DNA from: Escherichia coli
GTDB lineage: Bacteria; Pseudomonadota; Gammaproteobacteria; Enterobacterales; Enterobacteriaceae
Strand: one strand, 5' to 3'
DNA length: 64,000 nt
Assembly: GCF_001677475.2 (NCBI RefSeq)
Contig: NZ_CP015229.1
Shown in pieces: positions 3,445 through 59,713 of this stretch. Below the pieces are notes generated by a model. The model worked only from the letters and a program-made list of their open reading frames with translations. It did not search any database and had not been told where the DNA came from. Each line of letters starts with the position of its first letter. Position 1 is the first letter of the stretch. Position numbers and translations under genes: made by a program.

Positions 3445-3526
3445 CCGTTATCTCCTGATACACCTTAGATCTATAAGGCTACGCTAGCGTATCAAAACTG
3501 ACAATTCATTCTATGAATGAATCTGT

Positions 3527-3781
3527 TCAATAATGATAACGACATGCTGCAATGAGCAGTGAATCGTCGGTAACCGCGTATACCAGACGGTGCTCCTCTG
3601 TAATGCGTCGGGACCAGAAACCTGACAAATTATGTTTCAGGGGTTCTGGCTTCCCCTTACCTTCAAATGGCGTTCTGCGGGTATCTTTGATAAGTTCATT
3701 GATCTTTTTAACAATTCGCTTATCTGTTTCCTGCCAGTACAGATAATCATCCCATGATTCCTCAGACCAGATTAGTTTCAC
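3527..3781 (-). CDS. yoeB: YoeB toxin (RelE/ParE superfamily mRNA interferase)
   Basis: 84-aa [25 protein letters not shown]... ending ...CRYHY; overlaps yefM stop by 4 nt. Confidence 0.9.
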
Positions 3782-4029
3782 TCAATAATGTCCTTTTCCG
3801 TTCCTTTGCCAGATTTCAGGCTATCGATTGAGTCCATCAATCTCCGGGCATTAGCGGGGGAACGCAGTAGATAAGCCGTCTCCTCCAGGGAGTTGTATTC
3901 TTCGAGTGACATCAGAACACAAGCCTCTCCATTCTGACGAGTAATAAGGATCGGGGCATGATCTTCAACGGCTTTCATCATTGTTGCCGACAAATTCTGA
4001 CGCGCTTCGCTGTAGCTAATTGTACGCAT
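3778..4029 (-). CDS. yefM: YefM antitoxin (Phd/YefM family); start taken at internal Met [13 protein letters not shown]
   Basis: ORF translation matches remembered 83-aa YefM; ORF-track N-terminal extension is probably not translated. Confidence 0.85.
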
Positions 4030-4044
4030 GTTAATCTCCTCTTT

Positions 4045-4062
4045 TGTACATTTCATTGTACA
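4045..4062. promoter_or_regulatory. Putative YefM-YoeB operator: two TGTACA core motifs 12 bp apart just upstream of yefM
   Basis: ttgTGTACAtttcatTGTACAat read in sequence; the TGTACA core of the yefM operator is established knowledge. Confidence 0.5.
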
Positions 4063-4312
4063 ATGATGGGCGTTAATTAACTATTTATTAATTAGTTTGT
4101 AGATCAAGATATTGTCAGTGAGTCGAAAAATACAGGCTTCGCTATTTTTGGTGCCGTCAGCTTAGAGGTCAGTCCTCTTAGCACCCTCCTTGCCCCGCTC
4201 ATTCATTAAACAAATCCATCGCCATAAAATATATAAAAAAGCCCTTGCTTTCTAACGTGAAAGTGGTTTAGGTTAAAAGACATCAGTTGAATAAACATTC
4301 ACAGAGACTTTT

Positions 4313-5408: not shown

Positions 5409-5413
5409 TCGCC

Positions 5414-7796
<2,383 letters not shown>

Positions 7797-55507: not shown

Positions 55508-57091
55508 ATGGAATGGATTGCCGATCCGTCTATCTGGGCCGGGTTAATCACGCTGATTGTGATCGAACTGGTCCTCGGCATTGATAACCTGGTCTTTATT
55601 GCCATCCTCGCCGAAAAACTACCGCCGAAGCAGCGCGACCGCGCACGGGTTACCGGGCTGTTGCTGGCGATGTTAATGCGCCTGTTACTGCTGGCGTCAA
55701 TCTCCTGGCTGGTCACCCTGACACAACCGCTATTCAGCTTCCGCTCGTTTACCTTTAGCGCCCGCGATTTAATCATGCTGTTTGGTGGTTTCTTCCTGCT
55801 GTTCAAAGCCACGATGGAGCTGAACGAACGGCTGGAAGGGAAAGACAGCAATAACCCCACGCAACGCAAAGGTGCGAAGTTCTGGGGGGTGGTGACACAA
55901 ATTGTGGTACTGGACGCCATCTTCTCACTCGACTCAGTGATTACCGCCGTCGGGATGGTCGACCATTTACTGGTCATGATGGCCGCCGTTGTTATCGCTA
56001 TTAGCCTGATGTTGATGGCAAGCAAGCCGTTAACCCAGTTCGTTAACAGTCACCCGACCATCGTTATTCTCTGCTTAAGCTTCCTGTTGATGATTGGCTT
56101 TAGCCTGGTGGCGGAAGGTTTCGGCTTCGTCATTCCGAAAGGCTACCTGTACGCTGCCATTGGTTTCTCGGTGATGATCGAGGCGCTCAATCAGTTGGCT
56201 ATCTTTAACCGGCGACGTTTTCTTTCCGCTAACCAGACGCTGCGCCAGCGGACTACCGAAGCGGTAATGCGCCTGCTTAGCGGGCAAAAAGAAGATGCGG
56301 AACTGGACGCCGAAACCGCGTCCATGCTGGTGGATCATGGTAACCAGCAGATCTTTAATCCGCAGGAACGGCGGATGATTGAGCGGGTACTTAATCTTAA
56401 CCAGCGTACCGTCAGCAGCATTATGACGTCGCGCCACGATATTGAGCATATCGATCTCAACGCGCCGGAAGAAGAAATCCGCCAGTTGCTGGAGCGAAAT
56501 CAGCATACGCGGCTGGTGGTTACCGACGGTGATGACGCAGAAGATTTGCTCGGTGTTGTTCACGTTATCGACCTGCTACAACAGTCTCTGCGCGGCGAAC
56601 CGCTCAACCTGCGGGTGTTGATTCGCCAGCCGCTGGTGTTCCCGGAAACCTTGCCGTTGTTACCTGCCCTGGAGCAGTTCCGTAATGCCCGCACGCACTT
56701 TGCTTTTGTGGTGGATGAGTTTGGTTCAGTGGAAGGGATTGTGACATTAAGTGACGTCACTGAAACCATTGCCGGTAACTTACCGAACGAAGTGGAAGAG
56801 ATCGACGCCCGCCATGATATTCAGAAGAATGCGGACGGTTCCTGGACGGCGAATGGTCATATGCCGCTGGAGGATCTGGTGCAATATGTGCCGCTACCGC
56901 TGGATGAAAAACGTGAATATCACACCATTGCCGGGCTGTTGATGGAATATTTACAGCGTATTCCAAAACCTGGCGAAGAAGTTCAGGTGGGGGATTATTT
57001 GCTTAAAACGTTGCAGGTGGAAAGCCATCGCGTGCAGAAGGTGCAGATTATTCCACTGCGTAAGGATAGCGAGATGGAGTACGAGGTGTGA
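55508..57091 (+). CDS. yegH: Inner-membrane TerC-family/CBS/CorC-domain protein YegH (start at [12 protein letters not shown])
   Basis: TerC-like TM region followed by CBS pair and CorC_HlyC domain in ORF translation; synteny. Confidence 0.9.
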
Positions 57092-57099
57092 TAAAACAT

Positions 57100-57135
57100 C
57101 AAATGCGCAGGTTCAAACTGCGCATTTGATTTATA
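57100..57135 (+). terminator. Rho-independent terminator after yegH (caaatgcgcag...ctgcgcatttg + T-rich)
   Basis: 11-bp perfect inverted repeat read directly. Confidence 0.6.
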
Positions 57136-57165
57136 CAAAATTTAGTATAATCTAAGGATGGAGTA

Positions 57166-57527
57166 ATGAGAAAAAAGCTGGCTTTTCTTGATACCAGTCT
57201 TGACGATTTACGCGCATTTCCAGAATCGTCTCGACAGGAAATTGGCTATCAACTCGCCAGGAAATTGGCTATCAACTCGACAGGATCCAACAAGGGTTAA
57301 ACCCATACGACTGGAAACCTTTTACAACTATCGGCCCGGGTGTGCGAGAGATTCGTACTCGCGATGCTGATGGGATCTATCGCGTCATGTATGTCGCAAA
57401 ATTTGAAGAAGCGGTTTACGTATTGCATTGTTTTCAAAAGAAAACACAGACTACCAGTCAATCGGATATTGATTTAGCCAAACGACGCTATAAAGAACTT
57501 GTTCAGGAGCGGAAAAATGAAAATTGA
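57166..57527 (+). pseudogene. HigB-like (RelE/ParE superfamily, Gp49-like) toxin gene disrupted by a frameshift
   Basis: N-terminal 30 codons in frame 1 (MRKKLAFLDTSLDDLRAFPESSRQEIGYQL) then premature stop; C-terminal part in another frame (…REIRTRDADGIYRVMYVAKFEEAVYVLHCFQKKTQ…). Removing one copy of a 23-bp tandem repeat restores a 112-aa ORF. Confidence 0.7.
57233..57278 (+). repeat. 23-bp direct tandem duplication (gacaggaaattggctatcaactc / gccaggaaattggctatcaactc) causing the frameshift in the toxin gene
   Basis: Two adjacent copies with one mismatch read directly. Confidence 0.85.
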
Positions 57528-57807
57528 AACCTTTGATAGTGTGTGGGATGCGGTGAGTGTCACCCCTGAACAAGCGGAAAATATGCGGATCCGTGCCGAG
57601 CTTGTAACGATCATTAATAACTGGATTGAACAACAAGGGTTTAGCCAGACTCAGGCAGCGTCTGCTTTAGGGGTCACTCAACCTCGCATATCTGAACTTG
57701 CCAGAGGTAAGATCCAGATCTTTAGTATCGATAAATTGATCACCATGATGGCTCATGCAGGATTGCATATTCAACGTATTGAAGTTCAATATCCACATGC
57801 TGCTTAG
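57517..57807 (+). CDS. HigA-like antitoxin (XRE-family helix-turn-helix), start ATG overlaps toxin stop
   Basis: MKIETFDSVWDAV...QTQAASALGVTQPRISELARGKIQIFSIDKLITMMAHAGLHIQ; HTH_XRE-like motif; GGAG RBS upstream. Confidence 0.7.
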   Translation: MKIETFDSVWDAVSVTPEQAENMRIRAELVTIINNWIEQQGFSQTQAASALGVTQPRISELARGKIQIFSIDKLITMMAHAGLHIQRIEVQYPHAA

Positions 57808-57818
57808 TACTATAAATA

Positions 57819-57848
57819 CAGATGGCGACAAATTGACGCCGCCATCTG
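57819..57848. terminator. Possible hairpin terminator between antitoxin gene and asmA (cagatggcg...cgccatctg); weak flanking T/A runs
   Basis: 9-bp inverted repeat read directly. Confidence 0.35.
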
Positions 57849-57859
57849 CATAACTTGTC

Positions 57860-59713
57860 TTACATCTTCTCCAGCAACTTCTTCACATCTTTGCCATTGC
57901 GGGAATCTTTATTCCGCTCGGCCCAGTCATTCAGGCGACGTTTCGCTTCGTCCTGTAGATGTTTGCGCAGTAACTGATCCACTTGCAGACTGTAATTGAG
58001 TTGCTGCCAGTTGCCATAAACCCGCAGCGGTACTGGCGTTTCTTTGAGGAAATCAATCAGTTTGCTTTCCCCGTTCCAGCCACCCACGACCCGAATATCA
58101 AACTGGGTGTCGCAGGTTTGATCTGCCAGATTCAACATACCTTCCCCTGTAAGCGCCAGCACAGGCGATTGACCTTGCATGTCGTTTAACGTCACGACGC
58201 CATCCTTCAACGTCAAATCGGTGGTAAAGCGATCAAGCCGCGTCACGTTATCGAAGTTTTCAGCGGCCTTCACATCACCACCATTACGCTCTACCGCTTG
58301 CTGAATCATCTGCTGGAAGTTCATCCCTTCCATGCGCGTGTCAGTCATTTCGACATGTGCCTGTCCTTGCCAGTTGTGGCGGAATGCGTCGGCATCTATG
58401 TCAGCACCGGAGAAATCACCAGCCAGTGACATTTTTCCGGTCAACGAAATCGGATAGTTAAACGCCTTCAGAATGGTACCAATCTCAACGTTTTCCAGCC
58501 GTGGCTGAAAGTTTATCCGCGGATTTGCTGATGTCGCGTCCAGCGTGCCCGGCAGTGAAACCTGTCCACCGTTAAGTTTGCCCTGCAGTTGAGTAATTTC
58601 CAGCAAACCCGACTTGTTGGTCATTTGCGTGGCAACATCTGTAAAATTCATTCCGCGCCAGCGCACGTTACTGGCTTGCAACAAAATATCAGCCGTAAAG
58701 CCTTGCAGTCCCTGATAGGCCGGTTCATCAATACGCGAAGAAATGACCGGGCGCGGCAACGTTGATTGGCTCTGCCCTTGCTGCGCGGCACCGTTTTCAC
58801 CATTCGCTGTTTCATTAAGCGGGATGAGGTTGTCAAGATTCAGTTGCGGGAATTGCAGTCTCAGCTGCCATTCCGGTTTCTCTGTCAGCGTGACCTGTGC
58901 TTGCCCGCTCAGCGTACTTTCATTGGCGGTCAAGCTGATTTGGTTAAATGAAAGGCGTTTATGTGACTCCTGCCACTGGGCCTGGAAACTCCCCTGCCCC
59001 TGAATACCTTGTTTTGGTAAATCGGCACCCTGCAACTGCCAGTTAATTTGTTCAATAGCCGCCGTTAAATCATGCGGATAATCAGAAGCATCTACCGTAC
59101 CGTTAAGGGATATCGTGAGATCGCGCTGATCGCGATTAACCCGCCCGGAGAACTCAAATGAGCCACGATGTTGGGGATCTTGTTCCATTTGCAGGCGGAT
59201 ATTACGGATTGTCACCTGCTCGTCATCTTCATGCTGGAACACCAGAACGCTGTCCGCCACCTTAAGACTGGATATATCAAACGACCATCCGCGATCGTCT
59301 GACAGATCCGGCAAAGTATTGTCGCGCGGTGCAACAGGAGCGTCTTCACTGCGCACCGCTTCAGTCTGCGGCGTCAGTTGGATCACTGCCCCTTTTAGCA
59401 TCACCTGCTTAACGCTCAGTTGATGACTCAGTAGTGGTAAAAGCGCCACGTCCAGACGCATGTTGTCGGCGCGAACCAGTGGCTGGCTTGCGCCCTGGGC
59501 GGTGAGAGACATTCGCCCGGAGAGGATACTAAGCTGCGGCCAGACGTGCCAACGCAGTGGCCCGTCGAGCTGCAATTGATAACCGCTACGTGCAGCAACT
59601 TGCTTGACCATATAGTCGCGGAAATCATTCGGATTCACCAGCAACACTAACGCAGATAACCCGGCCACCAGCACGACCAGGAGTATCATCAGCGTCGTCA
59701 GAAATCGTCTCAT
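57860..59713 (-). CDS. asmA: Outer-membrane assembly protein AsmA
   Basis: 617 aa; N-terminal TM anchor; synteny with dcd/udk. Confidence 0.9.
   Translation of the reverse strand: MRRFLTTLMILLVVLVAGLSALVLLVNPNDFRDYMVKQVAARSGYQLQLDGPLRWHVWPQLSILSGRMSLTAQGASQPLVRADNMRLDVALLPLLSHQLSVKQVMLKGAVIQLTPQTEAVRSEDAPVAPRDNTLPDLSDDRGWSFDISSLKVADSVLVFQHEDDEQVTIRNIRLQMEQDPQHRGSFEFSGRVNRDQRDLTISLNGTVDASDYPHDLTAAIEQINWQLQGADLPKQGIQGQGSFQAQWQESHKRLSFNQISLTANESTLSGQAQVTLTEKPEWQLRLQFPQLNLDNLIPLNETANGENGAAQQGQSQSTLPRPVISSRIDEPAYQGLQGFTADILLQASNVRWRGMNFTDVATQMTNKSGLLEITQLQGKLNGGQVSLPGTLDATSANPRINFQPRLENVEIGTILKAFNYPISLTGKMSLAGDFSGADIDADAFRHNWQGQAHVEMTDTRMEGMNFQQMIQQAVERNGGDVKAAENFDNVTRLDRFTTDLTLKDGVVTLNDMQGQSPVLALTGEGMLNLADQTCDTQFDIRVVGGWNGESKLIDFLKETPVPLRVYGNWQQLNYSLQVDQLLRKHLQDEAKRRLNDWAERNKDSRNGKDVKKLLEKM

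Follow-up and report, generated by a model that had tools for sequence, protein, structure and literature searches.

The spacer between yegH and asmA in this Escherichia coli genome carries a chromosomal cassette of a Gp49 (HigB-type) toxin gene and an HTH_37 (HigA-type) antitoxin gene, which represents one of several alternative alleles of the spacer and probably derives from a plasmid addiction module. Here the toxin appears to be dead and the antitoxin an orphan. We put the probability of this reading at roughly 88%. Toxin-antitoxin pairs of the Gp49/HTH_37 type are a known kind, and the pair in the window (the whole stretch of 64,000 nucleotides that was analysed) is already annotated by RefSeq. 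The useful outcome is a correction, in that the locus is to be recorded as a toxin pseudogene with an orphan antitoxin and not counted as a working module, and for biology at large it has little consequence.

A frameshifted toxin gene and an intact antitoxin gene

The spacer, put at about 770 bp in the preliminary description, measures 768 bp from the yegH stop codon (57089-57091) to the asmA stop codon (57860-57862, minus strand), and its parts are listed in Table 1. The order of toxin then antitoxin proposed earlier was borne out, with the two genes overlapping by 11 bp at atgaaaattga (57517-57527), which holds the antitoxin ATG at 57517 and the toxin TGA at 57525-57527. The antitoxin is an intact open reading frame of 96 codons, as had been reported. 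The hairpins at the two boundaries of the spacer are mutually unrelated. The one between the convergent antitoxin and asmA genes is probably a terminator, and it belongs to the toxin-antitoxin-type allele and is missing from K-12-type spacers. An Rfam scan of the toxin-antitoxin-type spacer of the window gave no match.

Table 1. Features of the yegH–asmA spacer, in coordinates of the window.
Feature	Position	Strand	Basis or remark
Toxin-antitoxin-type yegH–asmA intergenic allele	57092-57859		768 bp here; 745 bp without the duplication
Terminator-like hairpin, 13-bp stem, abutting the yegH stop codon	57098-57130		Inverted repeat I1; terminator-like score on the minus strand
Candidate antitoxin operator, palindrome TATACAAAATTTAGTATA (TATAC-N8-GTATA)	57132-57149		Inverted repeat I2
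TATAAT, probable -10 hexamer, sharing bases with the right operator arm	57146-57151	+	Sequence reading
Toxin stub ORF, 30 native and 14 out-of-frame residues, then TAA	57166-57300	+	ORF list, translation
23-bp tandem duplication, unit CTCGACAGGAAATTGGCTATCAA, 2.4 copies; A>C at 57257 in the second copy	57230-57285	+	Tandem Repeats Finder
Rest of the toxin gene, not in the frame of the start codon	57258-57527	+	Frame-3 translation
AGGAG ribosome-binding site, 7 nt 5' of the antitoxin ATG	57505-57509	+	Sequence reading
Intact antitoxin gene, 96 aa, HTH_37/XRE	57517-57807	+	ORF; Pfam PF13744
Hairpin, 9-bp stem (CAGATGGCG ... CGCCATCTG), between the convergent antitoxin and asmA genes	57819-57848		Sequence reading

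Translation from the toxin ATG at 57166 reaches a stop codon at 57298-57300 after 44 amino acids and leaves codons 31-112 in another frame, because a 23-bp duplication shifts the frame after codon 30. Tandem Repeats Finder scored the repeat at 105, and alignment to the intact allele of E. coli strain ST2350 placed exactly 23 extra bases in the window. Deleting 23 nt yields a toxin of 112 amino acids, the length previously given for the repaired protein, which differs from RefSeq WP_001227701.1 only by S46T. The intact toxin gene carries the 10-bp direct repeat CTCGACAGGA twice, 23 bp apart, a spacing from which slippage or unequal exchange would yield the duplication, and we infer that the duplication arose between these native repeats in this way. 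The toxin C-terminal motif described earlier, YRVMYVAKFEEAVYVLHCFQKK, is indeed encoded at the locus but lies outside the frame of the toxin start codon, and the out-of-frame remainder keeps the family-invariant residues R56, R65, Y68, H80 and K84.

As judged from its reading frame, then, the toxin is a pseudogene in the window genome, and the antitoxin alone is intact. By calling the toxin repaired, the preliminary description implied that the defect had been seen, but it stopped short of naming the gene a pseudogene, and its title implied a working module. The intact toxin ORF that a functional type II module would have is absent here, interrupted by the frameshift and the stop after 44 amino acids. 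An active HigBA-like addiction or stress module would find its antitoxin, the ribosome-binding site of that gene, the operator and the sequence for the catalytic part of the toxin all still in place. However, beyond the truncated ATG frame the only downstream in-frame start is a GTG at 57342 (61 amino acids), which has no ribosome-binding site visible ahead of it and which would give a product lacking the first strand and two helices of the predicted fold, so that we consider an intact and functional module extremely improbable.

The duplication occurs in 0 of 5426 complete RefSeq E. coli genomes, as might be expected if it were a sequencing or assembly artefact and the true genome carried the common intact allele. 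Against this, gene calls giving exactly this 44-amino-acid stub exist in at least 24 other contigs, which come from independent assemblies of NCBI, ENA and SRA-derived origin, with the identical duplication including its A>C mismatch; both were present in all eight carrier loci that were fetched, whose flanks differ from those of the window by 0 to 0.75%. The allele is therefore inherited and not a sequencing error, and we give almost no credence to an artefact.

Family, predicted fold and candidate operator

The repaired toxin matches Pfam Gp49 (PF05973) over its full length (model positions 1-90 of 90, E=6.5e-31, 106.7 bits), and the antitoxin matches HTH_37 (PF13744, E=3.6e-21) and HTH_3 (E=5.6e-07), in agreement with the earlier assignment of an XRE-type helix-turn-helix (HTH) protein; both halves of the toxin-antitoxin call thus survived the HMM search proposed for them. 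The AlphaFold (AF2) model of the toxin (pLDDT 91) is predicted to have a RelE-like fold of N-terminal helices on an antiparallel sheet, placing it in the RelE/ParE superfamily. Its top Foldseek matches were HigB1 (7NBU and 7AWK, TM 0.67), S. pneumoniae HigB (6AF4), ParE2 (5CW7), HigB2 (5JA8) and RelE (2KHE), and its sequence identity to solved toxins is only 13-21%. The antitoxin model (pLDDT 86), confident in the HTH core and less so at the N-terminus, resembles XRE regulators; it is closest to 2O38 and 2A6C and is also like HigA (6AF3) and HigA2 (7EWC). Profile searches matched the antitoxin to 2A6C (3e-29) and to M. tuberculosis HigA3 and HigA2 and S. pneumoniae HigA (6LTY, 7EWC and 6AF3_B, respectively).

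The label HigB-like, given to the toxin at the outset, holds for the full-length Gp49 match and the RelE/HigB-like predicted fold, but not for the canonical HigB families of the Rts1 and K-12 type, none of which matched in a Pfam scan of the toxin that returned only Gp49 and one insignificant family. NCBIfam scores likewise fell below curated cut-offs, at 27 bits for the toxin against 62.85 for TIGR02683 (upstrm_HI1419) and 17.1 bits for the antitoxin against 47.7 for TIGR02607 (antidote_HigA), and PADLOC defence models gave only weak matches (E=0.0013 for the toxin, and E=6.3e-05 for the antitoxin to the candidate model PDC-M64C). By these profiles the pair deserves the name HigB-like only if the term is taken broadly, to cover Gp49. 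In hundreds of E. coli genomes RefSeq lists the intact pair as a toxin of the RelE/ParE family and an HTH protein. The arrangement is that of HigBA systems, with the toxin upstream of an overlapping HTH antitoxin gene, and the pairing is conserved: all 75 related loci with a downstream ORF of 75-130 amino acids encode a homologous antitoxin there, 65 of them with a 4-bp gene overlap.

Several known systems share features with the pair. Plasmid Rts1 HigBA and E. coli K-12 HigBA (YgjN/YgjM) have the same reversed gene order and an HTH antitoxin, but their toxin belongs to a different family, and the window antitoxin misses the TIGR02607 cut-off. The M. tuberculosis HigBA1 system includes a chaperone gene, which the window pair lacks. 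Pairs encoding a Gp49 (PF05973) toxin ahead of an HTH_37 (PF13744) antitoxin are known from Tn3-family transposons (PMC7157771), and these agree with the window pair in both Pfam families, in gene order and in combining a RelE/ParE-superfamily toxin with a HigA-superfamily antitoxin; the window pair, however, is located between chromosomal genes, no transposase, resolvase or terminal inverted repeats were found nearby, and its toxin is frameshifted. Experimentally studied HigB toxins with a Gp49 domain, Acinetobacter baumannii HigBA2 and M. tuberculosis HigBA1, HigBA2 and HigBA3, are also encoded first and followed by an XRE-HTH antitoxin (PMC5906591; PDB 7NBU, 7EWC, 6LTY). M. tuberculosis HigB1 on the ribosome (7NBU) is the best structural match of the toxin model, although sequence identity to these systems is only about 20%.

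Vibrio cholerae HigB2–HigA2 (PMC5416850; 5JA8, 8A0X) is likewise toxin-first and RelE-like (TM 0.61), and the neutralising segment of its antitoxin lies N-terminal to the HTH. The window antitoxin has a conserved, lower-confidence N-terminal segment ahead of its HTH core, of about 16-20 residues as against 36 in V. cholerae HigA2. Neither V. cholerae protein was recovered by single-sequence or profile searches of the PDB, and the likeness is one of predicted fold.

From these relatives, the toxin of intact copies would act as a ribosome-dependent mRNA endonuclease, which the conserved N-terminal segment of the antitoxin would neutralise, while an antitoxin dimer would use its HTH to bind the palindrome that overlaps the -10 hexamer and so repress the operon. 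In the window genome, repeat slippage would have duplicated 23 bp, shifted the frame after codon 30 and killed the toxin, leaving the antitoxin as an orphan, still equipped with its operator and a ribosome-binding site of its own, at a locus that presumably cannot poison the cell.

The palindrome TATACAAAATTTAGTATA overlaps a perfect TATAAT hexamer. We searched the 90 nt ahead of the toxin for TATAC-N8-GTATA in 79 related loci spread over many proteobacterial genera. With no more than one mismatch in the arms it occurred in 59 of them, 21 being perfect copies, and 562,570 nt of flanking sequence taken as background gave no match. The palindrome mostly stands 14-16 nt before the toxin start, with the consensus TATACAAAATTTTGTATA across loci L013-L092 and the window. 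These data suggest that TATAC-N8-GTATA is likely an operator common to the Gp49/HTH_37 subfamily, at which binding by the antitoxin would be expected. No description of the palindrome was found in the searched literature, and a candidate operator conserved across the subfamily in many Proteobacteria is a by-product for toxin-antitoxin specialists. A promoter scan upstream of the toxin returned no plus-strand sigma-70 promoter, and no well-spaced -35 hexamer was found, the sole -35-like hexamer being TTGATT at 57126-57131, 14 nt from TATAAT.

An alternative spacer allele and its relatives

At least some of the toxin-antitoxin-type spacer is present in 910 of 5426 complete E. coli genomes (about 1 in 6), with 792 of these at 80% coverage or more, and among the matches listed those of full coverage are 745 bp long, the size of the spacer when the duplication is absent. 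K-12 lacks the pair, and its spacer has no annotated gene, in line with the preliminary description, but is 273 bp long and not about 100 bp, and contains a REP element. The pair is thus carried by a minority, which upholds its description as strain-variable and accessory and argues against a core locus. Gene-free spacers of 67, 273, 291 and 450 bp are nested forms of one REP-containing sequence. In K-12-type spacers Rfam gave only sub-threshold REP-like (naRNA4) matches. The 450-bp spacer (L003, positions 802-945) also has a sub-threshold match to TwoAYGGAY (31.5 bits versus a gathering threshold of 43, E=0.052), which is probably chance or a repeat element.

Between the stop codons, toxin-antitoxin-type and gene-free spacers have no sequence in common. 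Divergence starts right after the yegH stop codon, and the asmA stop codon also differs between the two classes (TAA versus TAG). No empty site with common spacer sequence, target-site duplication or terminal inverted repeats, as expected of a mobile insertion, was found. The bounding of the divergence by the two stop codons and the lack of common spacer sequence argue for allele replacement over insertion, and by this comparison the window carries an alternative allele in which the complete intergenic segment, from stop codon to stop codon, has been exchanged. The earlier term "inserted" therefore has to be dropped, there being no K-12-like empty site. In a hybrid spacer (L004), sequence from the left part of the 450-bp type runs into the 3' half of the toxin gene and an intact antitoxin gene, a structure that points to recombination between the allele classes or to an ancestor holding both. 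We found nothing in the searched literature on yegH and asmA together with toxin-antitoxin genes.

The genome itself belongs to a poorly sampled E. coli lineage, as indicated by a best identity of 97.8% among the 5426 complete genomes over the 24 kb from the colanic-acid genes to dgcE (window positions 40000-64000). So low an identity raised the possibility of Shigella or another Escherichia species, which was set aside since the exact antitoxin protein is labelled E. coli in the source records.

Outside E. coli, the toxin belongs to a large family (7804 clusters) with homologs on 637 plasmid records, among them 115 Escherichia and 24 Shigella plasmids, and some in prophages; most plasmid homologs are below 60% identity. 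A scan of one genome per species found the toxin in no Escherichia or Salmonella representative, with the best match in Pantoea at 71%. The nearest relatives outside E. coli are Salmonella enterica pairs (P0016 and P0017, loci L099-L103). Their toxins are 79-82% identical, their antitoxins agree at 69 and 75 of 96 residues (72-78%), and the 20-bp operator site, TTATACAAAATTTAGTATAA, is the same. These pairs are intact and adjoin IncFII repA or tra/exclusion genes, whereas the E. coli copy is chromosomal and, in the window, broken. Because the closest relatives outside E. coli lie in such plasmid-like settings, albeit in a handful of Salmonella contigs, the most economical reading suggests that the chromosomal copy is a captured plasmid addiction module.

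Two further observations concern plasmid-like records. The Salmonella contig L099 has two different Gp49/HTH pairs (3501-4125 and 5413-6004) in convergent orientation about 1.3 kb apart, with TraX/TraW-like and exclusion genes as neighbours, and L100 is arranged likewise. In addition, three E. coli entries classed as plasmids (NZ_CP114132.1, CP137936.1 and NZ_CP083887.1, of 438, 365 and 43 kb; H97-H99) encode toxins 99-100% identical to the chromosomal one, and may be mislabelled chromosomal pieces or genuine transfers.

Decay of the locus and fate of the orphan antitoxin

Other alleles of the locus are also damaged. A nonsense allele found in 326 contigs (P0045), which lies at the yegH–asmA position in another E. 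coli lineage (L093-L096), ends its toxin with a stop at codon 83 and replaces an invariant residue (R56P); its left operator arm is mutated, its antitoxin differs by several substitutions, and in two of its loci (L093 and L096) the loss of 1 bp cuts the antitoxin down to 50 amino acids. One toxin variant (P0061) has a late frameshift, the hybrid L004 has a 5'-truncated toxin beside its intact antitoxin, and one genome (H30) retains only the last ~100 bp. Read together, these alleles indicate that the toxin has been disabled independently in other E. coli lineages, one of which has lost the antitoxin as well. The window locus is an intermediate stage of this toxin-first decay, and a single locus displaying clear decay stages, with the toxin lost first, may serve toxin-antitoxin specialists as a second by-product.

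One E. coli toxin variant of 104 amino acids (P0015) reads ...SSRQDATRVNPYDW... and looks, from the protein, like a reciprocal 23-bp deletion between the 10-bp repeats accompanied by a compensating 1-bp deletion. If so, the repeat pair would be a slippage hot spot in both directions. Tandem duplications can revert through the slippage that made them, and with a +23 allele in the window and an apparent -23 allele in P0015, the repeats could be imagined as a reversible on/off switch of the toxin through gain and loss of the 23-bp unit. We regard such a switch as highly unlikely: the duplication has been stably inherited over backgrounds differing by up to 0.75%, its two copies are already one base apart, no revertant of the lineage was seen and the nearest intact allele among complete genomes is about 7 of 745 positions away, and P0015 required a second mutation to restore its frame.

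Compared to the common E. coli protein, the window antitoxin carries D15V, A45T and I90V. In the lineage with the duplication we found only two changes to the cassette since the duplication, both of them amino-acid substitutions in the antitoxin, and these can be ordered, with neither in L009 and L010, D15V in L007 and L008, and D15V together with A45T in the window. Of 75 relatives, 66 have D or E at position 15 and none has V. The pattern hints at relaxed constraint on the antitoxin, with two changes to judge from.

Orphan antitoxins are common in E. coli, where surveys have found 11 Gp49 clusters and many such orphans, and an anti-addiction role has been proposed for them (PMC10790755). The antitoxin here might have been retained because it is useful, either as an anti-addiction factor or repressor directed at incoming plasmids that carry Gp49 modules of a related kind, or by regulating genes elsewhere, a reading that is compatible with the broken-toxin explanation and adds to it selection for retention. 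All seven loci of the duplicated allele that cover the ORF keep it intact; the antitoxins of the plasmid-like Salmonella relatives have an identical LGVTQPRISELARGKIQ segment in addition to the operator and overall identity given above; and toxin homologs are encoded on the Escherichia and Shigella plasmids counted above. However, both changes since the duplication alter the antitoxin, one of them at the D/E position, the antitoxin has been lost too in another lineage, and the low identity of most plasmid homologs also speaks against usefulness, which leaves selective retention doubtful. Its most specific form, in which the orphan is a retained immunity or anti-addiction factor that represses, and perhaps neutralises, incoming plasmid modules, draws on the identical operator and the 72-78% identity, by which the Salmonella modules could be repressible; we hold it to be unlikely, and if it were true, the lineage could shed such plasmids without being killed. 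With the toxin a pseudogene and the antitoxin an orphan, the early stop in the toxin could also lower expression of the antitoxin by polarity.
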